Shown here: positions 1,881-61,015 of the stretch, one piece after another
How the letters are laid out: every line of letters begins with the position of its first letter
How positions within the stretch are numbered: position 1 is the first letter of the stretch
Source of the DNA: a virus
Length of the DNA: 64,000 nt
Reading direction: 5' to 3' (one strand)
IMG/VR virus record: IMGVR_UViG_3300050011_000542
Coordinates: 31,217-95,216 of that record
Position numbers and translations under genes: made by a program
The notes under the pieces: model-generated
Told to the model about the DNA's origin: nothing
Databases searched by the model: none
The model's input: the letters and a program-made list of their open reading frames with translations, nothing else

Positions 1881-1904
1881 AACACGACCACGGAGGGTTG
1901 TGTT
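1881..1904 (+). promoter_or_regulatory. GGA-loop RBS hairpin (example of ~35)
   Basis: AACACGACC-ACGGAG-GGTTGTGTT: 9-bp stem, SD in the loop, GTG start of gene I in the stem. Confidence 0.8.
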
Positions 1905-2538
1905 GCGGGACGTAGTGCTCCACGGATTCCTTAAGGATAAGTACGGTGGACCGTTTCGCTTAAATGCGAATACGCCACGACAAGTTGTGTCTTTGCTGTC
2001 GGCCAATTTCCCAGAGTTCGACCAAGACATCAGGCAGGGCCACTATCGAGTGGTTCGAGGCGATTTCGACACCGGCATGGAACTGACTGTCGACTTGCTT
2101 GGTATGAGCCTGGGCAACGCTACGTTGCACCTCGAACCCATTATCGAAGGCGCGGCCTCGGGGTCAGGCAAGGGCATCGCCAAGGCTGTGATCGGCGTAG
2201 CGCTTATTGCTGCAGCGGTCTTTCAGCCAGAATTTCTCGGGTTCGGAGCAAGTGGCCTAAGTGTCTTTGGAACAGGGCTATCGATCCCAGCTGCCAGCAT
2301 CGGCATGTTTGGCCTTGCCTTGGCGGTTAGCGGCGTGGCCCAGGCCATCTCACCGACCCCGACAGGTAAGGTAGACCCCCACGCCTCATTCCTGTTTGGT
2401 TCGATCCAAAACATAACCCAGCAGGGCAGCTCAATCCCCCTGACCTACGGTCGTATCCGAGTGGGCTCTATCATGATTTCGGCTGACATCCAGACCACTG
2501 ACGACATTCAAGACACCCCTGGGTTCACCACGAAATGA
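1900..2538 (+). CDS. tail assembly protein I (lambda gpI-like)
   Basis: V-LHGFLKDKYG, P-IEGA, hydrophobic helix, QQG-SIPLTYG-IRVGS-MIS motifs. Confidence 0.9.
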   Translation: MLRDVVLHGFLKDKYGGPFRLNANTPRQVVSLLSANFPEFDQDIRQGHYRVVRGDFDTGMELTVDLLGMSLGNATLHLEPIIEGAASGSGKGIAKAVIGVALIAAAVFQPEFLGFGASGLSVFGTGLSIPAASIGMFGLALAVSGVAQAISPTPTGKVDPHASFLFGSIQNITQQGSSIPLTYGRIRVGSIMISADIQTTDDIQDTPGFTTK

Positions 2539-5500
2539 CCTCGAAAATCATCGACTTTACCGAGGTCGACGGCGTATTTGTCGAAGGCAGCAAGGGCAGC
2601 AGCAAGAGCGGCGGCGGTAATTCCCCAGGTGTGTCTTCGAGTGGCGGTATCGAAGCCCCGAATACGCTGCAGAACAATACTTTTGCTGTTTGCGTAGACC
2701 TTATCGGGGAAGGCCCTATCCTGGGCTTGTACGACTCTGTGATTACGGCCCTGGGGGGTGGTAACGGAAGCGGGGCCAAGTCGGTTTACTTTAACAATGT
2801 GCCGTTTGTATCGCCCATCGGGGATCAGAATTTCTTCGGGGCAATCTTTGGCTTTCGTAATGGCGTGCCCGGCCAGGACGTAATGCCTGGAGTGGTGACC
2901 GCCTCTAATGAGGTTTCGGTCAATACCAACGTCACTCAGACGGTCGGCCCGATTGTCAGGACGGTCACGGATAGCACCGTCACGGCGGTACGGGTTACGA
3001 TTGAAATTCCGGCGCTTTATCATTTGGTTACAGGCACTGGCGATGTCACAGGCACAGACCTAGAAATCACCGTCGAAATCCAGACCGGAGGCGGTGCCTA
3101 CGCCAACGTCATTACCGACTCGATAGTTAATCAGAAATGTACCAGTCCTTATGAGCGCAGCTATACGATCGCTCTGGGAGACGGGTCGGTAGGCAGTGGC
3201 CCTTGGAACATCAGGGTTACTCGCATCACCCCAGACAGCACCGACAGCAACCTGGTCAATGCTTTTGCCTGGGCCGGCTACACCGAAATAACTTCTGGAA
3301 ATTTCCCGTACCCTAATTGCGCTGTCATAGCCACCAGCTTTAATGCTCAGTTGTTCGGTACGCAGGTGCCTACCCGTAGTTTTGACGTGCTAGGTTTGAT
3401 CGTCGATATACCGTCCAATTATGATCCGGTTGCTCATGTCTATACGGGTGTTTGGGATGGTACATTTATTCAAGGTTGGACGAACAACCCTGTCTGGGTG
3501 CTGCTAGACCTCTTGCTGAATCCTCGCTACGGCCTGGGCCAGCGGGTGTCGCTAGACAACATCGACATCGGTAGCTTCTACTTGGCGGCGCAATACTGCG
3601 ATGTGCAAATTCCAGACGGTAAAGGTGGCCTGGAGTTTCGCTACACCTTCAATGGTCAGATCACCCAGCAGAACGACGCTTACAAAGTGCTGCAATCGGT
3701 TGCATCGAGTTTCCGGGGCATTTTGTTTTGGACCAACGGCACGGTTTACCTCAAGGCGGATATGCCGACCCTGCCAGTTGCCCTGGTCGCCCCGGCCAAT
3801 GTTATAGACGGCAAATTCACTTATAGTGGTTCGGCCCTGAAGTCGCGCCATACCGCCGCCCTGGTGACTTTCAAAGACCCGCTCAACAACTACGATGACA
3901 CGGTAGAGTTTGTCGTCGATAACCCAGGCATTCAAGAACTAGGCTATCGCCAGATTAACATCGTTGCTTTCGGTTGTACCTCGCGGGGCCAAGCTCATCG
4001 CTTCGGGGCCTGGATACTCGATACTGAAAGAACCCAGACTGAGACTGTCGTTTATCAGGCGTCTTTCGATCAGTGCTTCTTAAAGCCTGGTGATGTTGTT
4101 TACATTGCTGACCCAGCTTATTCCGGGGCGCGCTACGGCGGCCGTATCGTCAACTACGTGAATAGCGGTGGCACCGACCTAGTAACCATCGACCAGACCC
4201 TGAACCTCGACGGAAATCAGACCTATCAGCTGCAATTCGTTAAGCAGGATCAAACTATGATCCCGCTAACCACCATTCTCAATCCTGGTGGTACGTGGAA
4301 CGTAATGACGATTGCTGCCCAGGGCCTGTCGCCTCTAAAGAACGCGATGTGGATGATCACATCGTCCAATCTACAGCCCCGGCAGTTCCAGGTACAAAGC
4401 CTGCGTGAAGTTTCGCGTGGCATCATCGAAATCACGGCCCTGTTCTATGACCCTAACAAGTTTGCTCGTGTCGAAGAAGGCGTCACTGTTACTACGCCGG
4501 TTTATACGAATTTCCCGGTTACGCCTCCGGTGCCGCCTTCAAACCTCTCTGTCATAGAGTCAGACTACATCGCCAATGGCGTAGCGGTAAGCCGACTCAC
4601 TTTTGGCTGGTCGCCTTCGACAGACGTGCTGGCCTTCAAATACGGCGTGTACTACGAAGACCCGAGCCATCAGGTTGTAAACCTACCTCTGACTTCACAA
4701 TTTGCTATTTCGGTCGATCCGGCTCAGCTCGGTCCGTACACATTCAATGTGTTCTGCTTGACCACGGACGGCAGGCAGTCGATCGTCTCTGCAATCACAG
4801 TTACCTGCACGGGAAAGTCGACGGCCCCGGCCCCGCCAAGCGGTATTACGCTATTCGGAGGATCACACCAGATCACCATCAAGTGGGTGATCCCGCCTAA
4901 CCTGGATTATGCCTATACCGAAGTCTGGGCTTCCCAGACTAATGACATCGCAACTGTTACATTGATAGGACTGGCGGCTGCCGGATCGTTCATTTTCACT
5001 GGCCTGGCCAATAGTGCGACTTGGTATTTCTGGTTGAAGTCGGTTGACCAGTCCGGCAATCATAGTGCGTTTACCTCGCCGTCAGTTCATGCGACCACGG
5101 TTTACCTGATCGCCGACGATATTGCTGACGCCTTGCTAACTACGGCGGCCTTCGCCCAAAGCATTAAAGCCCCGGCAGTTGTAAACGGTCTGCCAAATCC
5201 GCTAACCTGGGGCGGTAATACCTTCGTCTACAACACCTTGGACGGTAAGCTCTATAACCTGATATCGGGGGCTTGGGTTAAGATCTACTCGGACAATAAC
5301 TCGACCACTATGACCAACCTCAATGCTGCGTTCTTCAGCTTGGGAATCAACATTCCGGCAGTGGTAACCAGCCTTCCTGTGACCGGCACTGAAGGCCAGA
5401 CAGTTACTCTGACCACAGATGGCAAGCTTTATCGCTGGCATAGCGGAGCTTGGACGGTTACCACTGACGGCGTTGATATAGCTGCCAGGTCGATCGCAGC

Positions 5501-11919: not shown

Positions 11920-11946
11920 TCAAGTTCAACCACGGAGGGTTTATCT

Positions 11947-13333: not shown

Positions 13334-13360
13334 TTCTCTACCTCACCACGGATGGTGACC

Positions 13361-15068: not shown

Positions 15069-15313
15069 TGAAAAGTCGGACCCGTATAGCTGTAGTTGCG
15101 GCGGCCTTAATAGTTGTCGCTGCTCTCAGCTCAGTCGCAAACGCTTGTATCGACCAGACTTTTGGTAGCACCGAAAACGACCCCGGTTCCTGTTCTGGGC
15201 TAGGTATCGGATTTCCTTTTACCGCAGCAGCACCACCGTCTGGATGCTCGGCTATTCAGCTAGATCAGACGGTTTCTTGCAACGCGGCGTCATTACCAAT
15301 TTTGGGGATGTAA
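15068..15313 (+). CDS. small exported Cys-containing protein
   Basis: Signal peptide ending ANA; coupled start. Confidence 0.55.
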   Translation: MKSRTRIAVVAAALIVVAALSSVANACIDQTFGSTENDPGSCSGLGIGFPFTAAAPPSGCSAIQLDQTVSCNAASLPILGM

Positions 15314-15316
15314 ATC

Positions 15317-15616
15317 GTGAAGAAACGCTCAATCATTGTAGGTTTATTTACGCTGCTTTCAGTTAGCCCGGCGATGGCCTGGGAGCCGTCCAAGGACGCC
15401 CCGGCCTGGGCCAGAAGTTTACCAGCGGTACACGGCGCTCTGCAGGCTTGTCGTGACCTGGAAGACTCGGTCCAGACGGCAATGCTCACTGCTCGCGCAC
15501 AATTAAATGCAGCACTTGCTGAGAATTCAGATCTAAAAAGCGCGTTATCCGATGCCATGGCTGATCGCGACAAAGCAGTAGCGCGAGTAAAAGAACTAGA
15601 GTCAGGAGCTCCGTAA
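15317..15616 (+). CDS. exported coiled-coil protein
   Basis: Signal peptide ending PAMA; heptad pattern. Confidence 0.6.
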   Translation: MKKRSIIVGLFTLLSVSPAMAWEPSKDAPAWARSLPAVHGALQACRDLEDSVQTAMLTARAQLNAALAENSDLKSALSDAMADRDKAVARVKELESGAP

Positions 15617-15617
15617 C

Positions 15618-17720
15618 ATGAAAAGGCTCGTAATCGCAGCCGTTGTCGGCGCATTGCTGCATGGCCCTGCGTTTGCGGGGTCGAGCACGATCTCAGTTAA
15701 GGATGCTGGTGGATCTACGATCACTTTCGGAGCCACCACAGACGGGTCTACTAATCTTTATAGCAACTTCGCCATCGTTGACGGCTCAGCTGCCGCCAAT
15801 AAGGCGGGAGTTACGGCGCGCGGTGCGCTCCAGATCGAAGGTGTAGCGAGCGGTACTGCGATTCCGGTCAGTGCGGCTTCGCTGCCGCTTCCGACTGGAG
15901 CCTCGACCAGTGCCAAGCAGCCCGCCTTGGGGACTGCCGGCTCTGCATCAACCGACGTTCTGACCATTCAGGGCGCTGCCAGCATGACCAAGCTACTGGT
16001 CACTGCTGATCCGATCACCGGCACGGTCACGGCCAATGCAGGAACCAACCTCAATACTTCTGCGCTGGCTTTGGAGAGTGGCGGCAACCTCGCAACGATC
16101 GCAGGCAGTATTGTCTCTGGAGGTACGGCCCTTGGGTCGATTAAAAACAGCCTTACTGGTGGCTCGGTAACAACTGCTGCCCCGACCTACACCACTGGTC
16201 AGATTGATCCGCTAAGTCTCAATACATCGGGTGGCTTGCGAGTCGATGGTTCTGGGGTAACCCAGCCGGTCAGCGCGGCCTCCCTCCCGCTTCCCACGGG
16301 GGCCGCCACCTCGGCAATCCAAACTGGTGGCAGCCAGAAGACCCAGATTGTCGACGGCTCTGGCAATGTTATCGCCTCGACCAGCAACAACCTCAACGTC
16401 CAGTGTGCGAACTGTTCTGGCTCTGGGGTGAGCGCGGCGGATGAAGCCTCGTTCACCGCTGGGGCTTCGGTGTTCGCTTCTGGAGGTGGGTTCTTCCAGA
16501 CGACCGCGACCAGCAATCCCCTCACGACCGGCCAGCAGGGCGCCTTCCAGCTGACCGCCAACCGCGCGCTCTTTACCAATCTGCGCAATGCGGCCGGTAC
16601 AGAGGTGGGAACCTCCTCGACACCCCTGCAAGTGAGCCTGGCGAACACCGCAGGCAATGCGACCGCAGTTAAAGTCGATGGCTCGGCGGTGACGCAGCCG
16701 GTTTCCATCTCCGGTAATCAGGCGGTTAACGAGGCACAGATCAACGGCGTCACGCCGCTAATGGGCAACGGCGTTAGCGGCACCGGCTCTCAGCGCGTAA
16801 ACATCGCGTCTGACAACACCGCGTTTTCGGTCAATGCCAATGCTGGCACCAACCTTAATACCTCAGCCCTCGCGCTTGAGTCAGGGGGCAACCTGGCGAC
16901 GATCGCAGGCAATATCGTTTCGCAAGGGACGGCGCTAGGCGCGATAAAAAACGAGCTTATGGGTGCCTCGGTCACGACCGCATCCCCCACCTACACGACG
17001 GGACAGATCAATCCGCTCAGCATGGATACTTCGGGTTCTCTGCGGGTCAATGTCGTCACCGGAGGCACGTCAGGTACGGTAGCGCAAGGTTCGACTACTT
17101 CTGGGCAGTCGGGCATGATGATCCAGGGTGCGGTTACGACCGCAGCCCCGTCATATACTACAGCGCAGACGAGCCCGCTCAGTCTCAATACATCTGGTCA
17201 ACTGCGAGTATCGGTCGAAGCCATAACCAATTCGACGGGCGCTGCGACCGGCGCGAGCGTTCCCTCGAACGCCGGATATGCCGGGGTGCGTGCTACCACG
17301 TCGGAGCCCACGGCCGTTTCGGACGGCCAGCTAGCCGGCGTCATGGCCGATGTCCGTGGCGCCCAGGTGATGCTGCTGGGGGCGGTGCCGCAGAACTACG
17401 TCTCCGGGCTGATCAGCTCGGCCATGACCGGAACCACCAGCACCCAGCTTCTCGCCGCGCCGGCCGCGGGTTTGCGCAATTACGTGACGACCCTGGTCTG
17501 CTCAAACTCGCACGCCACGGTGAGTACGGATGTCGATATCAAGGACGGCAACGCAGGCACCTCGATTTTCACGATCCCGGCAGCCGCAGTCTACGGCGGC
17601 ACGGCGATTTCCTTCCCGGTCCCGCTCAAACAGCCGACGACTGCAACCCGCCTCGACGCCGCTGACGTGACGACCGGCGCTAACGTCCGCTGTGCCGCCG
17701 TAGGGTACAAGGGGGCCTAG
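15618..17720 (+). CDS. exported 700-aa beta-strand repeat protein
   Basis: Signal peptide ending PAFA; internal repeats ANAGTNLNTSALALESGGNLATIAG x2 and VTTA-P-YTT-Q--PLS--TSG-LRV x3. Confidence 0.8.
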   Translation: MKRLVIAAVVGALLHGPAFAGSSTISVKDAGGSTITFGATTDGSTNLYSNFAIVDGSAAANKAGVTARGALQIEGVASGTAIPVSAASLPLPTGASTSAKQPALGTAGSASTDVLTIQGAASMTKLLVTADPITGTVTANAGTNLNTSALALESGGNLATIAGSIVSGGTALGSIKNSLTGGSVTTAAPTYTTGQIDPLSLNTSGGLRVDGSGVTQPVSAASLPLPTGAATSAIQTGGSQKTQIVDGSGNVIASTSNNLNVQCANCSGSGVSAADEASFTAGASVFASGGGFFQTTATSNPLTTGQQGAFQLTANRALFTNLRNAAGTEVGTSSTPLQVSLANTAGNATAVKVDGSAVTQPVSISGNQAVNEAQINGVTPLMGNGVSGTGSQRVNIASDNTAFSVNANAGTNLNTSALALESGGNLATIAGNIVSQGTALGAIKNELMGASVTTASPTYTTGQINPLSMDTSGSLRVNVVTGGTSGTVAQGSTTSGQSGMMIQGAVTTAAPSYTTAQTSPLSLNTSGQLRVSVEAITNSTGAATGASVPSNAGYAGVRATTSEPTAVSDGQLAGVMADVRGAQVMLLGAVPQNYVSGLISSAMTGTTSTQLLAAPAAGLRNYVTTLVCSNSHATVSTDVDIKDGNAGTSIFTIPAAAVYGGTAISFPVPLKQPTTATRLDAADVTTGANVRCAAVGYKGA

Positions 17721-17723
17721 CCG

Positions 17724-18128
17724 ATGCAACGGACTTTCAAGGGTGAGTGGAGCCTCGGCGAGCTTCACGGTTATCCGTTTACGCTCGACGGGCGCGGAGC
17801 CTACACGCAGCTTCATGCCCACGATAAGGGCCATGTCATGCAGGCGACCCGGCGGGTTGGCGTCTATGCTGTGCTGCCGAGTGGTTTCGAGCACGTCGAG
17901 ACCGTGCCGCAGGGCGAGACACGTTACATCAAGGCGCACATACCGCATATCGTCTTTGCGGTCGAGGATGGGTTGACTGAATGTCAGTGCCTGTTCTCCC
18001 GCTACGGCGCTGAGGGAGAGTTTCGCGCCGATCCGAAAGAAGGATCGCGGCAACCCTACGTCGAGACTTGCGACCTCACGCAGTTGCCCGATCTTGTTCA
18101 AAAATGGCTTACCGATGAAGCGGCGTAG
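17724..18128 (+). CDS. hypothetical protein
   Basis: Fills the operon gap. Confidence 0.55.
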   Translation: MQRTFKGEWSLGELHGYPFTLDGRGAYTQLHAHDKGHVMQATRRVGVYAVLPSGFEHVETVPQGETRYIKAHIPHIVFAVEDGLTECQCLFSRYGAEGEFRADPKEGSRQPYVETCDLTQLPDLVQKWLTDEAA

Positions 18129-18567
18129 CGTCCTCCTTGCCGCGCTCGGTGCGCTATTCATTCCCGCATTTCGGCTGAAGGCTGCGGACGTGCCAAAACC
18201 AAGACTTTGCGTGTGGGCGAGCACCCGCAACACTGGGCTGCCGGGCCGACCGCAGCGCGGGGATGTGATCGACATCCTCGACACGACGCAGCACCCCGGC
18301 CGTAGCGTCTATGGACATCCCGACTTCCGCATCGTCGATGTCAACATGCAGTGCGACAATCCGAAGCGCGAGCTGGCTAAGTGGATCGCCCGCGACGATG
18401 CGCCGGAAGGTTTCCTGTCCTGGCATCGCAAGTTCACCCTCGACCTCGATGCGATTGAGCGAGCCGAACGCCGCCGCCTTGCGGTCGATGATGTGATCGT
18501 GACGCTGCCGGGCAATCTCTTGGTTAAGCCTAAGCTGATGCTGCCCGATCCGAGGATCATCGGATGA
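18115..18567 (+). CDS. hypothetical protein with twin-arginine-like leader
   Basis: MKRRSVLLAALGALFIPA. Confidence 0.6.
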   Translation: MKRRSVLLAALGALFIPAFRLKAADVPKPRLCVWASTRNTGLPGRPQRGDVIDILDTTQHPGRSVYGHPDFRIVDVNMQCDNPKRELAKWIARDDAPEGFLSWHRKFTLDLDAIERAERRRLAVDDVIVTLPGNLLVKPKLMLPDPRIIG

Positions 18568-19574
18568 CGGTCACAAAGATCATCGGGCCAAATGTGGGGG
18601 CGGATTTTGCAACGCCTGCGCTGTGGTTTGCGTCTTTCCCTTCGACATTGATCGATAACGAGGTCGGCAACTTTCAAAATGCCGAGGTGGTGGCCTCGGC
18701 TTCTCAAGCGCTGACCGGCGTGACGGCGGGATCGTTTACCGTGACGATGCAGGCTGGTGCGGGAAATAGCTTCGCCGACAATGCCGGTAAACTGACTAAC
18801 GCCCTGGCCTATAACGCGAGCAACGGTGCGGCGTTGCGGGTGACGGCGTCGAGCAGCAGTCCGGCACTCGACATCCAGTGTAGCAATTTCGCTCTGATCG
18901 GCATTCAAGTCGAGAAGACCGACGCCTACGGTTCCGTCATCAGCTTCGGCAATAGTTCGTTTAGCGGGCGATCGATCAATCAAGTTATCGCTCAGCACAC
19001 CAATAATACGACCGTTACCGGCGATGTCTGCCTTGGAGTGAATGACGCCACCGGGCCGGTCAAGAATGTGCTGTGCCTTTCAGCCCCCAGTTCTGGCGCA
19101 GGGGTCGGCGGGATCAACAACATCAACCAGAACTGCGTTTATCAGGACATCACCATCGTCAATCTCGGGACTGGCGTGGGTCGAATAGGCTTTCAGGCAC
19201 CGTATGGCGCGCCGCTGCTGAATAACGTGGTCGTTGCTGGCTTTGCCACTGACTACAGCGGCACGGCTGGTACTTGCGCCAACAATGCGACCGACAAGGG
19301 TACGTTTGGCGGGACGAACTACGGTACGTCGGGGCAGGTCTCGGTGCCGCTTTCGACGGCGACATGGCAGAATATCACGCCCGCGACCGCCGATCTTCGG
19401 GCCAAGTCGTCGGGTACGAAACTTCCAGCCAACGGCACGAACACCGGCACGCCCTCGACCGATATTGTCGGCACGACCCGCGCCAGCCCGACAACGATAG
19501 GGGCGTGGGAAGCAAGCGCTGGTGGTGGCGGTGGTGCCAAGCCGCATGGCTTGCTGTTGCGAGGGGCGGGCTGA
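18564..19574 (+). CDS. beta-helix protein
   Basis: Asn/Gly-rich beta-helix pattern; C-terminal DIVGTTR..TIGAWE motif. Confidence 0.65.
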   Translation: MTVTKIIGPNVGADFATPALWFASFPSTLIDNEVGNFQNAEVVASASQALTGVTAGSFTVTMQAGAGNSFADNAGKLTNALAYNASNGAALRVTASSSSPALDIQCSNFALIGIQVEKTDAYGSVISFGNSSFSGRSINQVIAQHTNNTTVTGDVCLGVNDATGPVKNVLCLSAPSSGAGVGGINNINQNCVYQDITIVNLGTGVGRIGFQAPYGAPLLNNVVVAGFATDYSGTAGTCANNATDKGTFGGTNYGTSGQVSVPLSTATWQNITPATADLRAKSSGTKLPANGTNTGTPSTDIVGTTRASPTTIGAWEASAGGGGGAKPHGLLLRGAG

Positions 19575-23445: not shown

Positions 23446-23603
23446 TCAACCCTGAGTCTCGGCAGGTCTCCGGGACGGCTCAAAGCAACAGATAGACTAC
23501 TGCAATCAATTGCAGCAACACAATCGACTTTTTCTTTACCCATAGCTGACTGGCCCATACACTCCCTTCATACCCTAATTAAACAGGGCCATGGAGGGCT
23601 GTT

Positions 23604-25453: not shown

Positions 25454-25489
25454 ACCCGGCAGGCTCGTTAGGGGCTTGCCGGGTTTTTC
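25454..25489 (+). terminator. intrinsic terminator
   Basis: ACCCGGCAGGCTC / GGGCTTGCCGGGT stem followed by a T-run. Confidence 0.8.
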
Positions 25490-25511
25490 TGTATCGACCA
25501 TGGAGGGTTCG

Positions 25512-25865: not shown

Positions 25866-25877
25866 TCTCTTTAGACC

Positions 25878-26828
25878 ATGGAGGGTCTGTTGAGTTCCGT
25901 GTCTATTATTACGAAATGCCGTAATTTAACCAAATCGGGTGACGCGGCAATCCTATACAACAGGGTTCAGTGGTGGTGTCAGTGGTCGCTCATTAAACGC
26001 CGGGGCGTTTTTTGGTATGCGAAAACCAGAAAAGACTGGTTAGCAGATACGGGCTTGAGCCTAAATCAGTACAACCGATCGCTGGCCCGTCTTAAAGCTC
26101 TGGGTCTCGTCGAGACTCGCCAGATGAAATATCACGGCGAGTTTATCACTCATATCCGGATATGTGAAAGTGCGGCAGAATTGCCGATAACTGCCACCGA
26201 GTCTCACATTGGAGACTCCACCGAGTCTCACATTGGAGACTCGCTTATCTATATGGGAGATAAGTCTAAGGAGATAACAGCGCCCAAGAGCGCTGAACCT
26301 CTAGCGGAGGAAATTAAGGAAGACTTTTCCGGAAAAGGGAAAGAGGAAAAAGCTAGACCCGAATTGCAATTGATTGCGGGAGGGCTCACGGAGGAGTCGA
26401 TGAACGCCAAGGATTACATCCTGAAAGCTCAGGCAAAAGATAGACCCGTTCCTAAAAGCTCAGCGGAGGCGCTACGAGAGGCTTGGAGAGCCGGAGTACA
26501 CCAACACCATAAGACATTCGTTCCTGCCCTCACGGGGCAGCAGATGGGGCAATTGAAGCATTTTGAGAATAGGACTCCACCGGGGCGGGCTGTGGAGATC
26601 CTTTCCTGGGCTTTGGAACACTGGGACAGGTTCCGAAATCTCACTGAGGAAGAGGCCGGGGCCTTCAATACGCCCACGGCGCCCATGCTGGGATTTCTGC
26701 TCAAGCACGTCCAGCTGGCGATCAAGGGGGAGGCCGAGGTATCGGCCCCGGAGAATGAATACAAATCCAAGGTCAAGATTGGTGGCCCTAAGCCCAATAT
26801 GGGGCTCAAGAGCGTCGCCAATGGATAA
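25878..26828 (+). CDS. replication initiator (lambda O-like architecture)
   Basis: N-terminal wHTH, internal iterons, upstream of loader and DnaB. True start may be TTG 25890. Confidence 0.7.
   Translation: MEGLLSSVSIITKCRNLTKSGDAAILYNRVQWWCQWSLIKRRGVFWYAKTRKDWLADTGLSLNQYNRSLARLKALGLVETRQMKYHGEFITHIRICESAAELPITATESHIGDSTESHIGDSLIYMGDKSKEITAPKSAEPLAEEIKEDFSGKGKEEKARPELQLIAGGLTEESMNAKDYILKAQAKDRPVPKSSAEALREAWRAGVHQHHKTFVPALTGQQMGQLKHFENRTPPGRAVEILSWALEHWDRFRNLTEEEAGAFNTPTAPMLGFLLKHVQLAIKGEAEVSAPENEYKSKVKIGGPKPNMGLKSVANG
26194..26242. repeat. 2 x 24-bp iteron, each with an internal inverted repeat (putative ori)
   Basis: CCACCGAGTCTCACATTGGAGACT repeated in tandem; GAGTCTC-N6-GAGACTC. Confidence 0.75.
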
Positions 26829-28660: not shown

Positions 28661-28698
28661 ACCCTTACTCAAATTCTCTTATTCCCACGGAGGGGAAA

Positions 28699-29142: not shown

Positions 29143-29171
29143 GATCAAAACACCACGGATGGTGTCGTGTC

Positions 29172-29648
29172 ATGAGCTTCACCGACAAAGAACTTTCGGA
29201 TTGTGTGCCGGGCTTGCTCCGCTACGCACGGTCTCTTACCCGTAACCCTGATAAGGCTGAAGACTTATTAAACGACACGATCTGTCGGGCTTTAAAGAAG
29301 CGACATCTTTATACCGAAGACGCCAAGCTGAAACAGTGGCTTGGTGTGATTATGCACAGCCAGTACGTGAATTATGTTCGTAGAATTGCCCGCGAAGGAA
29401 AGTCTGTAGAGGTTCGAGATACTGATCCGGCTCTGACTTATCAGGCTGATCAAGATTGTGGTCTTAGAATGCGCGATCTTGCTAGGGCTTTCGGCCAGCT
29501 TTCAGAAGATCAGCAGCAGGTTATTATGCTTATCGGCGTTGAAGGAAAACGCTACGATACAGCTGCAGAGATTGTGGGCATCCCGGTAGGCACTATCCGA
29601 AGTCGTTTAAGCCGGGGCCGAGTTAATCTGAAAGAATTAGTTGGTTAA
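29172..29648 (+). CDS. ECF RNA polymerase sigma factor
   Basis: LLRYARSLTRN--KAEDLL-D, WL--IMH, GIPVGTIRSRLSRGR. Confidence 0.9.
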   Translation: MSFTDKELSDCVPGLLRYARSLTRNPDKAEDLLNDTICRALKKRHLYTEDAKLKQWLGVIMHSQYVNYVRRIAREGKSVEVRDTDPALTYQADQDCGLRMRDLARAFGQLSEDQQQVIMLIGVEGKRYDTAAEIVGIPVGTIRSRLSRGRVNLKELVG

Positions 29649-29664
29649 ACCACGGAGGTTAACC

Positions 29665-30989: not shown

Positions 30990-31073
30990 TAGACGATTGA
31001 CTGTGTAAGTGTGGCGGCTAGACTACACGAATCACTGGATGTGATTTTCTGATCTCACGGAGGAGATTGAAAC

Positions 31074-33531: not shown

Positions 33532-33921
33532 ATGCCCTACCGAGAGATAAATGGACAGAAAGTTAGAGTGTTTCGCGTAGGCGAGGTTGCTCGACGTTTA
33601 GGAGTCTGCCGGCGAACACTATTCAACTGGGAGCAACGCGGTTGGGTGCCTAAATTCAATGACTTCCCCAAGCATCGAGTATATACTGAGTATCAGCTAC
33701 GACTTCTCCGACAATTGAGTGTCGTGTTGAAGCGCTGGTATCGTCTGAAGCACTTGCCAATACCTGCCGCCCAAATCGATCGAAGCATTACGATTGTTAA
33801 AACCCGATGGGATCGCGTGCCTGGAGTGACCGATGCAATCGAAGACTCTAAAAGGGCAGCTATGGCTAAAGCACGAGAACAGCGCGGAAGAGTCTTTCGA
33901 GGAGGAGATCGGCATGTCTGA
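33532..33921 (+). CDS. MerR-type HTH DNA-binding protein
   Basis: FRVGEVARRLGVCRRTLFNWEQRG..HRVYT. Confidence 0.75.
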   Translation: MPYREINGQKVRVFRVGEVARRLGVCRRTLFNWEQRGWVPKFNDFPKHRVYTEYQLRLLRQLSVVLKRWYRLKHLPIPAAQIDRSITIVKTRWDRVPGVTDAIEDSKRAAMAKAREQRGRVFRGGDRHV

Positions 33922-34126: not shown

Positions 34127-34153
34127 CCAGGGCAGGCCCACGGAGGGGCGTAT

Positions 34154-36229
34154 ATGGCAACCACAGCCGAGTTGTTTACGGGATTTTGTAAGGCTCACGG
34201 CGACGATGTAGGAAGCTTCGGGGGAACGCTTATGGAGGTGCCCCGTATCCCTACCGGGTTCTTTGCTTTCGATCTTGCTTCCGGAGGTGGTTTGCCGAAA
34301 GGTCGAGTGTCGATCATTGTAGGGCCAGAGAGCAGCTGTAAGTCCAATTTGGCCCTGCGAGCTATCGCTAATCATCAGCGCTTGTGGCCTGACCAGACGA
34401 ACGTGTTCTTTGACCTAGAGCATACGCTTGATCCGGGCTGGGCCAGGGCACTAGGGGTCGATACCGATAAGCTGTTGGTGCTTGAGCCTTCTTATGCTGA
34501 GCAGTGTGTCGACATGATCGACGGCCTATTGGAGACCGACGATATCGGCATGGTAGTTCTCGACAGCGTAGCTGCAATGGCGTCCACGGCCGAGATCGAG
34601 AAGGAAACCGAGAAATCGAATATGGGTGTTTCCGGCAACGTGATGTCGAAGCTGGTCAAGAAGTCCACGCACACGATGGGACAGGCTAGGAAGAAGGGTG
34701 GCTCAGGCACCCTGATCTATGTGAACCAGGTTAGAACCAAGCTGGGAGTGGTGTTTGGAGATCCAGAGTGTCTTCATGGTGATACGCCTATCAACTTCGT
34801 TGACGGTCGTCACCTGACGATCAGGGAAGTTGTCGAACAGAAATTAGACGGCCCAATTTGGGCGTTCGACGAAACCAACGGAAGTTTCGTGCAAGCTCGT
34901 ATCCTAAGTCACCATTACAATGGACAAGCTAAGGACGGAGAGTTTCTCACCGTTACCTCGGAGGCTCTGGACACCAAGAACGGTGTTCTATCCGCTACCG
35001 TGAGTGTAACTCATAAGTTTTTCACTGACAGCGGATGGAAACAAGCGAGAGAGCTGACGACGGAAGATAAACTTCTTACTCGATACCGTAGCGTCATAGG
35101 CGGTTCTTTGAGAAAGTTTCTGACCGGGGCTTTGTGCGGTGATACCTCCATCGAGCGTCAAGGAGATCGAGCTCGTCGAGTAGGATTGCGGTTTAGTGAC
35201 CGTAATGACCCGGACTACGCTATGTGGAAATGGAAATTACTGGCTCCGTACTTTGGAGGTAGGAGTGACGTATCAGGGCTGCGCATTCCAGCAGCAACAG
35301 AGTTGTCTTACTTTGTAGAAAACTTCGGTGGTTGTCGTCATCCGGCTCCGTTGTTCGCTGATTTTTCATGGTTAGCATTTGCAATATGGATGCTTGACGA
35401 CGGCAATTATTGTCGAGGCAGATACACGCTCGCCATCGGCAGGTTTAGAACTAAGCCGGATGTGCGCGCTTGGATATCAGCTAGACTGAATGACTTAGGT
35501 CTGAGTCACCGATGGCATCAAGATAAGAATGTGGTATTTTCCACGGCTGTTAGTGCCTATATCGCAGAGAAAATCGCTGAGTTTGTTCCGCCTTGTATGC
35601 ACCGTAAACTTCCTGAACACCTTAGAGGTGTAGGACTGACGGAATTGCAAGGGAAAGACAGTCAGGTGCCAAGTTGGGTCACGATTACGTCTATCGTTCA
35701 GTCTTCTCCTAGAAAGTACCGAGAGAGAGGCTTGTACGATATTCATGTTGAAGGGCATCACAACTACCTGGCGGGTAACGTAGACAACGGTTTCGTCGTG
35801 CATAACACCATGCCCGGAGGAATGGCCCAGAAGTTTCAAGCATCAATGATTGTTCGCCTGTACGGCAAGAACATCGTGGACCCCAAAATCCACAAGACCA
35901 TGCCAATCGCAAAGAACGTAAAGGCTGTTATCAAGAAGTGGAAGGTGCCCATCTTAGCGGTCGGGGCCGAGTTCGAAATGGTCACTTACCCGCACAAGGG
36001 CCTTGGCGTAGGCGAGACAGATGATTGGTCAGTGGTGTCCGAATACCTCAAGACCTTCGGTCAGATAGAGAAGCAGAAAGACGGATACCTGATGTTGGGT
36101 GAGTCTTATCCGACTCAGAAGGCCATGCAGGAGCGCTTCTATACCGATCACAAGTTCTCTGACGATATTCGCTCGGCTTTGATCCAGCGGCTTCTGGAAG
36201 ATCCCAATTTGGTGCTAGAGCTCAAATAA
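34154..36229 (+). CDS. recA: RecA recombinase with intein
   Basis: FDLASGGGLPKGR, GPESSCKS, DLEH-LDP, VVLDSVAA, VNQVR, FGDPE|T-PGG---KF. Confidence 0.93.
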   Translation: MATTAELFTGFCKAHGDDVGSFGGTLMEVPRIPTGFFAFDLASGGGLPKGRVSIIVGPESSCKSNLALRAIANHQRLWPDQTNVFFDLEHTLDPGWARALGVDTDKLLVLEPSYAEQCVDMIDGLLETDDIGMVVLDSVAAMASTAEIEKETEKSNMGVSGNVMSKLVKKSTHTMGQARKKGGSGTLIYVNQVRTKLGVVFGDPECLHGDTPINFVDGRHLTIREVVEQKLDGPIWAFDETNGSFVQARILSHHYNGQAKDGEFLTVTSEALDTKNGVLSATVSVTHKFFTDSGWKQARELTTEDKLLTRYRSVIGGSLRKFLTGALCGDTSIERQGDRARRVGLRFSDRNDPDYAMWKWKLLAPYFGGRSDVSGLRIPAATELSYFVENFGGCRHPAPLFADFSWLAFAIWMLDDGNYCRGRYTLAIGRFRTKPDVRAWISARLNDLGLSHRWHQDKNVVFSTAVSAYIAEKIAEFVPPCMHRKLPEHLRGVGLTELQGKDSQVPSWVTITSIVQSSPRKYRERGLYDIHVEGHHNYLAGNVDNGFVVHNTMPGGMAQKFQASMIVRLYGKNIVDPKIHKTMPIAKNVKAVIKKWKVPILAVGAEFEMVTYPHKGLGVGETDDWSVVSEYLKTFGQIEKQKDGYLMLGESYPTQKAMQERFYTDHKFSDDIRSALIQRLLEDPNLVLELK
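34769..35806 (+). mobile_element. 346-aa intein with LAGLIDADG endonuclease
   Basis: Starts CLHGDT and ends VVHN|T; LTGALCGD and IWMLDDG motifs. Confidence 0.92.
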
Positions 36230-36244
36230 CCCACGGAGGGGTGA

Positions 36245-38259: not shown

Positions 38260-38317
38260 CAGTGGCGTAAGATTCGCGAATGCCAACCAATTGAAAGCTC
38301 CACGGAGGGAGTTTCAC

Positions 38318-38833: not shown

Positions 38834-38905
38834 TTGCAATTTTCTCTTGATCTTTGCAGGTAGCTAGATACACTCTGTTTTATCAAACACCGAGGAGGGT
38901 GGGAA

Positions 38906-40266: not shown

Positions 40267-40497
40267 AGTGCAATCGATTGCACCAGGAGGGTGCTGTGTC
40301 CAAGTGCGATGTCATCGTCGACCTTATTAATGGTGTGTCTTGTGAGGCACCGGGGCGATGGCAAAGCCCGCAGCTGCCCGGCCCAGCAGGAGAACGCACA
40401 AGATGTAATGACCATAAACAGCCCGGTGATGAGCTAACCCAGGCTGAAAAAGACGCTGACATGGAAGCACTAGCAGGGTTGTACTAGGAGGGTGCGA

Positions 40498-41391: not shown

Positions 41392-41459
41392 CGCTTTTTA
41401 CTTGTCTGTAGACAGGTCTAGGCTACGGTATAGGTATATCAAAGCCCAAGGAGGGGCAG

Positions 41460-42148: not shown

Positions 42149-42311
42149 GTAGCAGCATCGGGTCTTTACCAGAGTGATCTGGTCGACCTTCAACAAGCCC
42201 CGATCCCTCTTCTCCGCTAGTTCAGACTAGCTCATGCAGGGCAATCAGGGCAACTGCTACAGGGCATATAGCGAGGGTCAGCGGGGAATTAGCTACCGCG
42301 CCTCGTGCTCT
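42149..42311 (+). ncRNA. candidate structured RNA / leader upstream of RapZ-C gene
   Basis: Nested stems GTAGCAG/CTGCTAC, ATCGGG/CCCGAT, ACCAGA-GTGA-TCTGGT, GCTAGT-TCAG-ACTAGC, CGAGG/CCTCG. Confidence 0.5.
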
Positions 42312-42326
42312 GCCACGGAGGGCAAA

Positions 42327-42683
42327 ATGGCTTTGAAGAAGCTAGTTAGTTTTGGTTTTAAGCATTCTGCATCCGGGGCTGAGCCAGCCGCGCCGATAGG
42401 CTATATTGATGTTCGCCAATGGGGTCTTGCTAACCCACACAGTCACCACTTCTTGAAGAACATGACCGGCAAGGCGAAAGCTGTAGCTGAGTACATAGAG
42501 GATCACAAAGGTTTCTCGGCTGTTTGGGAGATGTATTTAGAAGTTGTTCTCGACCGAGCCCAGAAGGGCTATGAAACAGTATATGTAGGCTGTGTAGGTG
42601 GTAAGCATCGTAGTGTGTATCTAGTAGAGCGCCTGGGCAAGGAACTTGGCATCGAGGTAGAACACAGGGACATAGACAAATAG
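42327..42683 (+). CDS. stand-alone RapZ C-terminal (RNA-binding) domain protein
   Basis: SFGFKH, DVR..L-NPH, MTG, VGCVGGKHRSV, VEHRDI. Confidence 0.85.
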   Translation: MALKKLVSFGFKHSASGAEPAAPIGYIDVRQWGLANPHSHHFLKNMTGKAKAVAEYIEDHKGFSAVWEMYLEVVLDRAQKGYETVYVGCVGGKHRSVYLVERLGKELGIEVEHRDIDK

Positions 42684-42716: not shown

Positions 42717-43036
42717 ATGGCTAAGGAGTCGTATCTGGTCGATGTTGAAGCTGAGCTCGTCCACCAGACTGAGCTTGGTCCTTAACCGTATAATTATGTA
42801 TTTTCCCTTGTCATAGTCAGGTCTTACGTTACGATCGTTCGGCGTCAACAAACACATAACCAGGATGGTTGGTGATGCCCTCGGAACTGAAGATGCAAGT
42901 GGAAGAGCTGGGCGCTTACCTGATCGACAATGGCAGCCAAAAAGTCTGGGTGCCAAAGGCAGCAGTAGAGTACGATGAATTAGACGGCGTGTTCACGTTG
43001 CCTCGGGCAATGGCCCAGGACAAAGGACTGATCTAA
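42717..43036 (+). pseudogene. small phage beta-barrel gene split by a promoter+RBS insert
   Basis: MAKESYLVDVEAELVHQTELGP* (42717-42785) and ...ELGAYLIDNGSQKVWVPK..FTLP..KGLI* (42875-43036). Confidence 0.5.
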
Positions 43037-44179: not shown

Positions 44180-44208
44180 CTGCAATCAGTTTCACCAAGG
44201 AGGGTGTT

Positions 44209-45138: not shown

Positions 45139-45156
45139 TTCACCAAGGAGGGTGAT

Positions 45157-45456: not shown

Positions 45457-45530
45457 TCGTCTTTTTATTGACCTGGGCCAGTCTGTGGGTACGATCATCG
45501 CAGTTAATTCCTTTTCACCAGGAGGGTGTC

Positions 45531-46721: not shown

Positions 46722-46993
46722 TTAGCCCAGATATTCCTAATGCTATTTTCGAGGTAGCAGGTATCGGGGCGATTGCAGCCAACATTGCCCAGGTGCTTAA
46801 AGACAAGAAGGTACATGGTGTATCGCCCTGGGCAGTAGGCTTGTTCATGCTATGGGGTTGGTGGAATCTGTATTTCTACAGCGCCCTGGCCCAGGTATTC
46901 AGCTTTTATGTTTGCCTGTTAGGTTGTGTGTTATACGCTACCTATATCGGATTATTGCTCTATTACAGGGCTCGCCAGAACCAGGAGGGTTAA
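46718..46993 (+). CDS. PQ-loop/SemiSWEET-like membrane protein
   Basis: Three TMs; KDK-VHGVS..WG-WNLYFY. Confidence 0.55.
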   Translation: MISPDIPNAIFEVAGIGAIAANIAQVLKDKKVHGVSPWAVGLFMLWGWWNLYFYSALAQVFSFYVCLLGCVLYATYIGLLLYYRARQNQEG

Positions 46994-52099: not shown

Positions 52100-52922
52100 A
52101 TAGCCCAGGCACTACCGACACCCTCCTGTCTAAACCATGTCTATGCAAGCTGTCTAAGCTGTCTATAGACGGGTTAGTTGTCCCGGCCTATATCCTTATC
52201 GGCCCAGGCCAGGGCTATGTTCATAGTTTCCTTGGCTATAAGCCTGTAATATCAGGGCGCGTAACCGTGTATCCTGACCCAGCCTAAAAAGCCCAGGTGT
52301 CCTGCCCAGCCCAGACACTATGAAACGCATGACCTGACCAGATAGAAGGCAGTAAGACGACATTAGACAAAAACCTTTTTGCAACCACTTGCACTGGCCC
52401 AGCCCAGCCCAGATTATATGAACTGATGTTATGGACCTGGCCCCGGAAGCTATCCGATCAAGAAGGGTATAAGCACCTATAAGCCCTACTTCCAGATAAG
52501 GAAGAAGGATTATGTAAGGAAGGATAGCTGCGTACTAGCTTAGTAGGGAGTAGCTGTATCCCGCTTCCTGTAGCCAAGAACCGCCCAGCCCGCCTCTTGT
52601 TATGCTGGAGCTCGCCGATTTCCCGCCGGCGCTTTAGACATAAGCCATCCAACACCCTTGTAAGCCGCAGAAGATAAGGGTTTTTCACATGTTTGAAGAC
52701 CCTGCAGATTTCTGCATGACGCATGCATGTAGGCGATCACACTGCAATTGATTGCAGCAGCTCGGTGATAGGACGCTCCTCGATCATCGTACCAGACTGA
52801 AAGCCGCTGCCGAAAGCTGCACCTATGCCTTGCAGAATTCTGCACATGACTAAACAACATGACTCTTGGTGTCGGGGCGCGCTATAGTTTTACTGCAATC
52901 AATTGCACCAAGGAGGGTGGTC

Positions 52923-53216: not shown

Positions 53217-53248
53217 TTACTGCAATCAATTGCAACAAGGAGGTTGCT

Positions 53249-53422: not shown

Positions 53423-53537
53423 CATGCCCAGGGCATGATCGGTTAGCATGCTCCGCATGACAAACTAACAGTTCTCTGCCCCGAGCTTTCAGGTACGATA
53501 GTAAGGGTCAAAACAAACACACACCACGGAGGGTGCT

Positions 53538-54512: not shown

Positions 54513-54851
54513 GACGAAGACGAAAGCACATAATCATAAGTAAAGCCCAGGCACCCCGCCTACGTATAAGCCATGCAATTTCGATCACTGCCTGACGCAA
54601 GGAGATCCGCTATGTCGGGCGTACCGGCGGTTTTGTACCCGGTTTTAGACACCCCCAAAATTTTCGGATTTTTCGCCTAACTTTTTTGAAGACAATTTTT
54701 ATGCGGAGACTAATGCCTGTATTATCCGCACTATCGCGTACCTGAGATACGAGATAGTCAGGACAGCACCCACGCCATATTCGCTTTTTACTTTGTTTTA
54801 TAGCGGCCTCTGCTACCATCGCCTTATGTAAATACCCACCAGGAGGGTGTA

Positions 54852-55722: not shown

Positions 55723-55985
55723 CCGAAGTCGTGTACATCCGAGGCCCTAAGAGCAATGCCCAGTTCGATGGGTTTGCTAAAGGCTGGTACTGGCTAGATG
55801 ACGGGCATCCAACGGGGCCGTACCCCAACAAGCAAATCGCCGAAGACAAGGAGTTCTTGTACCGCAATCACTATGAGTGTAGCTGCGGCGAGACCTGGGC
55901 AGATGAGTGGTATTGTGGCTGCGACGACGAGTGCCCCGAGTGCGGCCTAGACATTTCTCCGCACCAGTCAGATAATTTGTTTTAG
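55719..55985 (+). CDS. Zn-ribbon protein
   Basis: CSCG..W..CDDECPECG. Confidence 0.65.
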   Translation: MTEVVYIRGPKSNAQFDGFAKGWYWLDDGHPTGPYPNKQIAEDKEFLYRNHYECSCGETWADEWYCGCDDECPECGLDISPHQSDNLF

Positions 55986-56060
55986 GCCCGTAGTTCAGTT
56001 GGTTAGAACTCGCCGCTCATAACGGCGCTGTCGCAGGTTCGAGTCCTGCCGGGCCTACCA
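55984..56060 (+). tRNA. tRNA with CAT anticodon, probably Ile2 (lysidine) rather than Met
   Basis: AGGCCCG/CGGGCCT acceptor with C4-G69 and C5-G68, loop CT-CAT-AA, GGTTCGAGTCC, encoded CCA. Confidence 0.9.
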
Positions 56061-56613: not shown

Positions 56614-57309
56614 GTGTGCAATCGATTGCACCTGATGCTATGTGTTCTGGCCATGACAACGGATTGTCGTGGGCAAGAGGCCCTGATAAAGCAAATAACG
56701 GGCATGCGCCCTTATCTGGTGGTGTATGGCCGGCGTCTGACAGGTAATCATGACCGGGCCGAAGACCTGGCCCAGGATACGATGCTTCGCGGTATTCAGA
56801 AGCTGGACATGTTTGTTGAAGGCACCAACCTGAAGTCCTGGCTGGGCAAGATGATGACCAATCTGCACATCGATTATGTGCGGGCCAGGAAGAACCAACC
56901 TCATGCCGACATCGAAGAGCTATCGGAAGAGTCACTGGTCGAAGAACCCAATCAGGACAAGTCGTCTCTGGTTCGCGATATAGAGAAGGTGTTGGCTCGA
57001 CTACCGGCGTTCCACGGCAAATGCTTTCGGCTTCACGCTGAAGGCTACACGCATAGCGAAATCGCCCACATGTTGCAGGTTAGGGTATCGATCGTGCGCC
57101 AGCGTGTGCATGAGGCGGTTCTAGCGGTCCAGCACGAGCTAGGCAAGGGCAGCTTTAGCCCGAAGCCGGCTTATCATCGCCCCCAGGGCTATTTCTCTCA
57201 GAGAATGGCTATCCGTGAGCGTAAAGAGAGTTTGGGAAAACTGGTCCTGGTAAAGGTATCGGGGCAGTTTCGGCTTATGCGCGTTGCTGCTGAGAAGGTC
57301 GCCGCCTGA
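56614..57309 (+). CDS. second ECF sigma factor with basic C-terminal extension
   Basis: RLTGN-DRAEDLAQDT, F-EGTNLKSWL, GYTHSEIA. Start may be 56653. Confidence 0.85.
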   Translation: MCNRLHLMLCVLAMTTDCRGQEALIKQITGMRPYLVVYGRRLTGNHDRAEDLAQDTMLRGIQKLDMFVEGTNLKSWLGKMMTNLHIDYVRARKNQPHADIEELSEESLVEEPNQDKSSLVRDIEKVLARLPAFHGKCFRLHAEGYTHSEIAHMLQVRVSIVRQRVHEAVLAVQHELGKGSFSPKPAYHRPQGYFSQRMAIRERKESLGKLVLVKVSGQFRLMRVAAEKVAA

Positions 57310-58030: not shown

Positions 58031-58058
58031 TGCAATCGATTGCACCACGGAGGGTGTT

Positions 58059-59237: not shown

Positions 59238-59252
59238 CACCAGGAGGGTGCT

Positions 59253-60285: not shown

Positions 60286-60346
60286 TTCTCTTTGACCAAG
60301 CTTCGGCCTATCTTATTATTCACCCACGAACCACGGATGGTCGACT

Positions 60347-60532: not shown

Positions 60533-60536
60533 ACCA

Positions 60537-61001
60537 ATGATCTGGGTGTGGCTCTCGCTTGCTTTTATAGCAGGCGCTATCAGCTTGTTGGCTATCGCCG
60601 CTGTCTTCTCTCCGAAGAAGGCCGCTGTACCGGCAGCATTGATAGAGCCAACCGCACCAGTATCAGCCGAGCTAAATTGCCTGGGCTGTAATTACGCCAA
60701 GCCCGGCGAGAGCACGCCCGGTTTTCCGGAAGCTGCCCAGGCTTGCTATTTTTGTGTTCGTAACAAAGACAGAGAGAACTGGCAGGGCTGGGCACTACGA
60801 GCCAACGGCGACCGCTTGTTGAGCTGGGGTAACGGCGCCCCGGCTGTCAGCTATCCGATGGACGCCTATCACTCAGTAGACATGGCCAAGCAGTATGCCC
60901 AGGAGCTTGACTGGGATCGGGGCTATTTCAACGAGCGCATCACGCGGCTGTCCAACGCCCTGCGTATCGCCAAAGCCACAGGGTATCGTCGCTACTTCTG
61001 A
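60537..61001 (+). CDS. membrane-anchored Cys-containing protein
   Basis: N-terminal TM; CLGC..CYFC. Confidence 0.6.
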   Translation: MIWVWLSLAFIAGAISLLAIAAVFSPKKAAVPAALIEPTAPVSAELNCLGCNYAKPGESTPGFPEAAQACYFCVRNKDRENWQGWALRANGDRLLSWGNGAPAVSYPMDAYHSVDMAKQYAQELDWDRGYFNERITRLSNALRIAKATGYRRYF

Positions 61002-61015
61002 CCATGGAGGGTCTG

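Follow-up and report, generated by a model that had tools for sequence, protein, structure and literature searches.

The RegA protein of phage T4 is a small phage protein that binds the ribosome binding sites (RBSs) of dozens of phage mRNAs, where it reads AU-rich single-stranded sites. CsrA and the Rsm proteins are known as global regulators of bacteria, and csrA alleles of phages have so far been without an assigned function (PMC7366521). Here we describe a 64-kb stretch of phage DNA, called the window in the following, that comprises bases 31217-95216 of the 95,216-bp IMG/VR virus record IMGVR_UViG_3300050011_000542 (labelled 'provirus', 99% complete). Many genes of this phage present their Shine-Dalgarno (SD) sequence in the GGA-containing loop of an RNA hairpin, and a gene for a divergent CsrA-like protein is located upstream of the window.

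In the high-affinity site of CsrA and RsmE, a stem closed by a C-G pair directly carries an ANGGAX hexaloop, and five-base A-GGA-X loops are bound likewise. Thr5 of RsmE hydrogen-bonds the G of this closing C-G pair (Duss 2014, PMC4005645). AAGGA, ACGGA, ATGGA, AGGGA and AGGA were described as primary CsrA motifs (Kulkarni et al., PMC4066749). Alleles of csrA were catalogued in phage and plasmid genomes with no function assigned (Sobrero & Valverde 2020, PMC7366521); mobile genes of the family include those of phages whose hosts lack a chromosomal csrA (PMC7366521), and RsmQ is an example from a plasmid (PMC9928087).

Hairpins with GGA loops at the translational starts

Positions are given either in window numbering or, where marked as genome, in the numbering of the 95,216-bp record. 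A simple codon-usage gene caller that is blind to hairpins was applied to the whole genome and predicted 120 genes, 117 of them on the + strand. Starts were picked by open reading frame (ORF) and SD core only, and 85 of them have an SD that contains GGA. With a hairpin defined as a stem of at least 4 bp around an NNGGAN or NGGAN loop, 35 of these 85 SD-led starts (~40%) carry a GGA-loop hairpin; 29 of the 35 lie inside the window, together with about five further hairpins at starts that the gene caller missed. This matches the number of about 35 starts given in an earlier note on the window, and all 12 hairpins quoted there were recovered at the same positions.

The hairpins overlap the SD and hold GGA in the loop, as an A-N-GGA-G/T hexaloop or an A-GGA-G pentaloop (acggag 11, aaggag 6, atggag 5, aggag 5, acggat 2, others 6). 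The stems comprise 4-9 bp, with free energies (ΔG) from -1 to -11 kcal/mol. In 27/35 hairpins the end of the GGA is 7-9 nt upstream of the start codon, and in 28/35 the 3′ arm is separated from it by 1-4 nt. The first base of the hexaloop is A at 26 of 29 starts with a hairpin versus 12 of 41 hairpin-free starts, while the second base is free (C, T or A). A C-G pair closes 31 of the 35 stems.

For statistical evaluation the 5′ arms were dealt among the genes, which keeps the position-specific composition. This arm permutation yielded 8.3±2.4 hairpins (maximum 18 in 500) versus the 35 observed, corresponding to z=11.1. The hexaloop register alone gave 29 observed versus 5.8 expected hairpins, with a maximum of 15 in 2000 arm permutations. 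In minimum free energy structures calculated by RNAfold, the GGA was in a hairpin loop at 41/85 starts, compared to 13.4±3.0 (z=9.2) when the six loop bases were kept and each flank was shuffled. No such stem was present at 49 RBS-like sites of the minus strand. There was also no excess in 31 unrelated viral loci (13/242 sites, 5.4%, z=1.3) or in a 400-kb sample of the chromosome of the alphaproteobacterium Reyranella (9/215 sites, 4.2%, z=0.5).

Covariation was analysed for 42 sites that were selected solely for A-N-GGA-[GT], and a helix of five pairs was scored. Paired cells amounted to 74.8% versus 54.7±2.5 in the shuffles, and the covariation score was 0.482 versus 0.160, a value that none of 500 shuffles reached. 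Slid registers of the helix pair at 31-55%. At the third and fourth stem pairs AU, CG, GC and UA are all used freely. Since the excess is strand-specific, the hairpins are read as RNA. A C or T in front of GGAG would not lengthen the pairing to a 16S tail of the usual kind, so the conserved loop positions are not explained by SD strength. Extended SD pairing of the 3′ arm (GGTGA with the 16S tail) was excluded as its sole cause, because arms of unrelated sequence remain paired. Pfam CsrA was found in 29/151 sampled alphaproteobacterial genomes, in line with the statement of the earlier note that CsrA is mostly absent from this class; together with the lack of an excess in the Reyranella chromosome this argues that the hairpins are not a habit of the host. 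The compensatory stem changes that the note had described, and a hairpin frequency above that of controls, are borne out.

Comparison with CsrA/RsmE sites

At the sequence level, the phage motif is the published high-affinity CsrA/RsmE consensus with regard to loop, closing pair and primary motifs (PMC4005645, PMC4066749), as the earlier note had assumed for the ANGGAN loops. The GGA hairpins of described CsrA/RsmE systems (the hcnA RBS and the stem-loops of RsmZ; PDB 2JPP, 2MF0) share the A(N)GGAX loop, the C-G closing pair and the overlap with the SD. They differ in the penultimate pair: the known consensus asks for U-A here, or for a purine in the 5′ strand, and the phage mostly has C-G (31/42 A-N-GGA-[GT] sites) and not U-A. 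The phage sites also stand out by their occurrence on ~40% of the phage's own genes, usually as a single hairpin per RBS. No sponge sRNA (small RNA) was found in the phage, for which no systematic search was made; a cluster of GGA hairpins at 25.4-26.5 kb was considered as a candidate and dropped, as the region is coding and its extra hairpins look like chance.

Position of the hairpins in the genome

The densest stretch is window 23.5-64 kb, where 25 of 50 SD sites have a hairpin. Upstream of the window, the terminase-to-polymerase block has a hairpin at 5/12 SD sites, and another is found at the start of the DNA polymerase gene. The portal and major capsid genes carry versions with a 3-bp stem. 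Hairpins are rare at translationally coupled genes (tail genes), and none was found at the six genes of a GC-rich island at 15-23.5 kb, consistent with their reported absence within 15.1-23.4 kb. The earlier note had assigned the hairpins to replication, recombination and early genes. The set is wider than this and extends to DNA polymerase and, with the 3-bp stems, to portal and major capsid. The following hairpins were mapped in the window:

1325..1338, +, RBS hairpin CGCT-taggag-GGCG, start GTG 1341
1881..1904, +, RBS hairpin AACACGACC-acggag-GGTTGTGTT, 9 bp, ΔG -11.1, GTG 1900 within the 3′ arm
11928..11941, +, RBS hairpin AACC-acggag-GGTT, start 11947
13343..13358, +, RBS hairpin TCACC-acggat-GGTGA, start 13361, lipase-like gene
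23587..23600, +, RBS hairpin GGCC-atggag-GGCT, start 23604, AAA ATPase
25496..25509, +, RBS hairpin GACC-atggag-GGTT, GTG 25512, 117-aa ORF, downstream of a terminator-like hairpin
25872..25889, +, RBS hairpin TAGACC-atggag-GGTCTG, start TTG 25890
26383..26398, +, hairpin GGCTC-acggag-GAGTC before the in-frame internal ATG 26400 of ORF 25878-26828, palindrome upstream
28682..28697, +, RBS hairpin TTCCC-acggag-GGGAA, start 28699
29150..29165, +, RBS hairpin ACACC-acggat-GGTGT, start 29172, ECF-type sigma factor
29646..29662, +, RBS hairpin TTAACC-acgga-GGTTAA, start TTG 29665
31029-31047, second GGA hairpin GAATCAC-tggat-GTGATTT, just upstream of the 31050..31069 hairpin
31050..31069, +, RBS hairpin TGATCTC-acggag-GAGATTG, start 31074
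33895..33908, +, weak RBS hairpin TTTC-gaggag-GAGA, start 33914
34136..34149, +, RBS hairpin GCCC-acggag-GGGC, start 34154, RecA with intein
36229..36242, +, RBS hairpin ACCC-acggag-GGGT, start 36245
38295..38314, +, RBS hairpin AAGCTCC-acggag-GGAGTTT, start 38318, RuvC-like
38888..38901, +, RBS hairpin CACC-gaggag-GGTG, start 38906
40280..40294, +, RBS hairpin GCACC-aggag-GGTGC, abuts a palindrome, GTG 40296, 63 aa
40479..40497, +, RBS hairpin TTGTACT-aggag-GGTGCGA, start 40498, ThyX
41444..41457, +, RBS hairpin GCCC-aaggag-GGGC, start 41460
42311..42324, +, RBS hairpin TGCC-acggag-GGCA, start 42327, RapZ C-terminal domain protein
42857..42871, +, RBS hairpin TAACC-aggat-GGTTG, start 42875
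44193..44206, +, RBS hairpin CACC-aaggag-GGTG, start 44209
45140..45155, +, RBS hairpin TCACC-aaggag-GGTGA, start 45157
45516..45528, +, RBS hairpin CACC-aggag-GGTG, start 45531
46979..46991, +, RBS hairpin AACC-aggag-GGTT, GTG 46995, 71 aa
50565..50582, +, RBS hairpin ATTGCA-acggag-TGCAGT, start 50586, 5′ arm shared with a palindrome
52906..52919, +, RBS hairpin CACC-aaggag-GGTG, start 52923
53232..53247, +, RBS hairpin GCAAC-aaggag-GTTGC, start 53249
53522..53535, +, RBS hairpin CACC-acggag-GGTG, start 53538
54837..54849, +, RBS hairpin CACC-aggag-GGTG, start 54852
58042..58057, +, RBS hairpin GCACC-acggag-GGTGT, abuts a palindrome, start 58059
59238..59250, +, RBS hairpin CACC-aggag-GGTG, start TTG 59253
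61000..61013, +, RBS hairpin GACC-atggag-GGTC, start 61016

A CsrA-like protein encoded upstream of the window

The earlier note had considered a phage-encoded CsrA outside the window. A scan of all six frames of the genome with Pfam CsrA (PF02599) at E<=0.001 gave no CsrA match, a false negative that is due to an insertion splitting the domain. A divergent family member is encoded by a 103-aa (amino acid) ORF at genome 8644-8952 (locus L139:8644-8952), 22.3 kb upstream of the window; compared with Pfam CsrA, this protein matches with E=8.5e-6 (26.1 bits) in two stretches that are split by ~40 residues.

A profile search of 1.84 billion cluster representatives retrieved 481 representatives of ~90-100 aa that are related to the 103-aa protein, and 44 of 60 sampled family members match Pfam CsrA individually (E<=0.01). 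All 11 matches of the family profile to the PDB are CsrA, RsmE, RsmN or RsmF chains, with E values down to 1e-3. Alignment of the family to six canonical CsrAs by hhalign gave 85.8% and E=5e-6; it puts ARvxIeAPRxixIlRG on the beta4-beta5 segment and the Arg of the family on Arg44. The beta1 motif of CsrA, L-I-L-T..GE, is present as PLILTLKQGE (P0002; HMMER and hhalign), and the beta4-beta5 motif R-[IV]-x-I-x-A-P-x-x-[IV]-x-[IV]-x-R as ARVCIEAPLDMKIHRR (P0002). The window's phage has Arg at the position equivalent to Arg44, as do about three quarters of the family; Thr, Ser or Lys is found there in G003, Reyranella and others. Neighbours in the ESM Atlas are CsrA clusters, the nearest of which is 73% viral.

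Judged by these matches the 103-aa protein is a divergent member of the CsrA family and not a canonical CsrA. The latter has ~60-70 aa and consists of five strands and a C-terminal helix that form an interlocked homodimer, a description from which the phage protein with its insertion departs. A known parallel is RsmN/RsmF of Pseudomonas aeruginosa (PDB 4KJI/4K59), in which the CsrA-family core is likewise split by an internal insertion; RsmN was the best PDB sequence match of a 3-sequence profile and a partial structural match to the phage protein. In RsmN one helix is inserted and the dimer is kept, whereas ~40 residues are inserted in the phage protein, for which four extra strands and, with confidence, a monomer are predicted.

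The gene is part of a cassette at genome 6415-11597 that encodes a truncated PPDK-like dikinase (PPDK_N and PEP-utilizers mobile domain), the CsrA-like protein, a hypothetical protein, a PTP phosphatase, a 361-aa hypothetical protein and a second PTP phosphatase. Autoregulation of the CsrA-like gene via a hairpin of its own was considered and dropped, as it is inconsistent across the relatives.

Chromosomal homologues of the protein are carried by three Reyranella genomes (L207, L208, L209), in which canonical CsrA was not found. The RBSs of these homologues are hairpins themselves (GCCC-AGGGAG-GGGC or CCC-AAGGAG-GGG).

Hairpins and cassette in related phages

By protein similarity and synteny the phage groups with the ~100-kb siphoviruses RHph_Y1_11 and RHph_TM16 of Rhizobium and RcZahn of Rhodobacter. 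The hosts of these relatives are Alphaproteobacteria. Megablast of 20 kb of the phage against cultured phages gave no match, searches for related loci with a 433-aa protein and with RecA gave none in viral and genome contigs, and the joint pattern of hairpin and a 14-bp palindrome, TGCAATCRATTGCA, had no match in viral contigs. Relatives were reached via the palindrome alone and via tblastn.

Cassette and gene are syntenic in 12 phages: G000-G007 (G000 being the window's phage), G014, RcZahn, RHph_TM16 and RHph_Y1_11. Ten of the 12, the cultured Rhizobium and Rhodobacter phages included, show a hairpin excess with z of at least 4 (G000 11.1, TM16 11.0, G003 9.4, G005 7.0, Y1_11 6.5, RcZahn 5.8, G006 5.7, G004 5.5, G001 4.5, G002 4.0), and the values for G007 and G014 are 1.7 and -1.1. 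Four phages that share the palindrome and lack the cassette have z values of 3.6 (G009), 0.9, 0.1 and -0.9.

The closing pair was compared with the residue aligned to Thr5 of RsmE. This residue is Thr in G000 and G003 and Ser in RcZahn, in which the closing pair is C-G in 31/35, 25/25 and 12/14 hairpins, respectively. It is Gly in eight phages with four or more hairpins (TM16, Y1_11, G001, G002 and G004-G007), with A-T or mixed closing pairs. The residue thus appears to track the closing pair, suggesting an apparent code of specificity between protein residue and RNA.

Orthologous RBSs were compared between TM16 and Y1_11 only, whose proteins share ~50% identity. At least one of the two phages has a hairpin in 11 orthologue pairs, and in five of these both have one. 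All 11 pairs together show 8 compensatory changes, e.g., GATAA/TTATC versus GATTA/TAATC, versus 19 broken pairs.

Proposed mechanism

We see about an even chance that the hairpins are RNA binding sites of the phage's own divergent CsrA-family protein, which would occlude the SD. Each site displays the SD in a loop of six (A-N-GGA-G/T) or five bases (A-GGA-G) that is set directly on a C-G-closed stem of 4-9 bp. With the CsrA-like protein on the loop and the upper stem, the SD would be covered and the stem kept shut, and the 30S subunit would then be unable to pair with GGAGG or to thread the mRNA. The net effect would be a coordinated repression of translation initiation for some 35-50 phage genes. 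Repression is the most likely effect, rather than protection or activation; we infer it, as we do the binding itself, its timing and the roles of the cassette enzymes. The dikinase and the two PTP-type phosphatases may set the activity of the CsrA-like protein. The system would most likely act as a functional analogue of T4 RegA on a CsrA scaffold, RegA being unrelated in sequence and directed to AU-rich single-stranded sites instead of GGA hairpins.

A more far-reaching version takes the cassette as a writer-eraser-effector switch. Phosphorylation would toggle a single-chain CsrA-derived binder, which would flip translation of most phage genes via the SD hairpins or mark phage mRNAs as 'self' during the shutdown of host translation. 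We consider this version improbable.

Several observations weigh against binding of the hairpins by the CsrA-like protein. The Pfam score of 26.1 bits is just below the gathering threshold of 27, and the protein carries the ~40-aa insertion. AlphaFold2 (AF2) predicts a nine-strand monomer without C-terminal helix at a predicted local distance difference test (pLDDT) score of 88. Searches with this predicted model gave ambiguous matches to RsmF and RsmN: RsmF by Foldseek with E=0.13 and prob 0.98, and RsmN by VIA-align with Z 4.5 and a root mean square deviation of 1.9 Å over 47 residues at 38% identity, ranking below generic beta-sandwich matches. Arg44 is a critical residue of CsrA, and its counterpart in G003 and Reyranella is Thr; the hairpins of G003 are very strong. 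The RBS of the CsrA-like gene itself forms no good hairpin in most relatives. Furthermore, the cassette phages probably represent one clade, so that the co-occurrence of gene and hairpins and the correlation of residue and closing pair reflect few independent events. Further points of this kind are at the same time arguments for the main rival explanation and are considered with it.

Alternative explanations

The main rival is a lineage-specific RBS design that acts in cis and needs no protein, a possible explanation that we rate as rather doubtful. Display of GGAG in a loop could insulate the SD from structures nearby in long polycistronic mRNAs, tune initiation via the stability of the stem or shield the RBS from RNases, and the CsrA-like protein would act elsewhere, e.g., on host mRNAs. 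The motif is found on most stand-alone RBSs, those of DNA polymerase and of structural genes such as portal and capsid included, which suits a general RBS 'dialect' equally well, and the modest stem energies (-3 to -7 kcal/mol) are compatible with melting by the ribosome. The complete phage G009 lacks the cassette, and no CsrA-like homologue was found in it even by a --max search, yet it has hairpins at 12/94 sites (type NNNA-atggag-TNNN; z=3.6 by arm permutation, 1.6 by RNAfold). Conversely, long stems are lacking in G007 and G014, which possess the gene and show only the conserved RBS 10-mers CAATGGAGTG and CATGGAGGG. Five phages with canonical csrA (Vibrio, Providencia, Bacillus) show no excess of RBS hairpins; a CsrA of a phage is thus not necessarily directed at the RBSs of that phage. 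On the other hand, mere display of the SD makes the A at loop position -2, the free nucleotide at -1 and the conserved closing pair superfluous, and it does not account for a closing pair that follows a protein residue. The design is also absent from an alphaproteobacterial chromosome (Reyranella) and from unrelated phages, and a stem that ends 1-4 nt before the AUG needs to be melted, which would cost translation unless the stem is otherwise useful.

It is unlikely that the hairpins are read by a different trans-acting factor, such as the RapZ C-terminal-domain protein (window 42327-42683), an unrecognised RegB-like nuclease for GGAG loops or a host protein. The RapZ_C domain protein is encoded by the phage and has homologues in RcZahn, TM16, Y1_11 and G005, and many phage ORFs belong to no known family. 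However, RapZ_C is missing from the hairpin-bearing phages G001, G002, G004 and G006, and from G003 (an incomplete record, ~74%). A RegB- or RegA-type factor was dropped, since no homologues of RegA (PF01818) or RegB (PF10715) were found in the phage at E<=1. Moreover, the motif fits the CsrA consensus point for point and a gene of the CsrA family is present.

Some hairpins abut the 14-bp palindrome (6/35), as would suit operators, promoters or recombination sites that overlap the SD by chance, but such a role of the inverted repeats as DNA sites is very improbable, as the arms vary between sites with complementarity alone kept, G-U pairs occur, the loop is asymmetric, and the hairpins are found in sense orientation only and at fixed spacing to start codons.

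Further features of the phage

About 30 copies of the palindrome TGCAATCRATTGCA with at most one mismatch are spread over the genome, within and between genes; in the window they range from 128 to 61499 (e.g., 40269, 52894, 58031). A copy is located within 45 nt of 6 of the 35 hairpins. The palindrome is common to IMG/VR phages of ~95-105 kb (12-47 copies), some of which lack the CsrA-like cassette, and is nearly absent from RHph_Y1_11, RHph_TM16 and RcZahn (0-5 copies). At window 26365-26402 a palindrome, an ACGGAG hairpin and the in-frame ATG 26400 lie inside ORF 25878-26828, and this ATG may be an internal start that yields a 142-aa C-terminal product.

Two genes for ECF-type sigma factors are present (29172-29648 and ~56650-57306). 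The second has its ATG within an 8-bp hairpin (loop ACGGAT, 56653-56676), on the 5′ side of the stem, and this hairpin directly follows a palindrome. The recA gene (34154-36229, 691 aa) harbours an intein with a LAGLIDADG endonuclease domain inside, and the protein encoded at 42327-42683 is a RapZ C-terminal domain (RNA-binding) that stands alone. The gene at 24828-25439 is followed by a hairpin that resembles a terminator and has a T-run (25455-25492), and genes for tRNA-Thr(tgt) and tRNA-Met(cat) are at 31952-32027 and 55984-56060. The GC-rich island (0.61; 15100-23500) is flanked by palindromes at 14566 and 23501. It has five ORFs without Pfam match, the two largest of which also lack a PHROG match, and a methyltransferase gene on the minus strand (22708-23412); the island is possibly a recent acquisition.

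Implications

The catalogued CsrAs of phages and plasmids are canonical, with a function that is unknown or directed at the host, while the protein of the window's phage is divergent. The paper on the RcZahn genome mentions neither hairpins nor the CsrA-like gene, and no description of a phage-internal Csr regulon was found in the literature searched. Our comparison places textbook Csr sites on many of the phages' own RBSs, together with a divergent CsrA-family gene, in a lineage of ~100-kb alphaproteobacterial phages, and the system is probably a novel form of Csr-type control. Direct testing is possible in culture, with Rhodobacter capsulatus as host of RcZahn and Rhizobium as host of RHph_TM16 and RHph_Y1_11. 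If hairpins and protein are indeed linked, this would be the first case known to us of a phage Csr-type protein that controls the phage's own translation genome-wide. It would represent a RegA-like strategy that uses a different scaffold, and it would define a new CsrA subfamily, with 481 cluster representatives and a nearest ESM Atlas cluster that is 73% viral.

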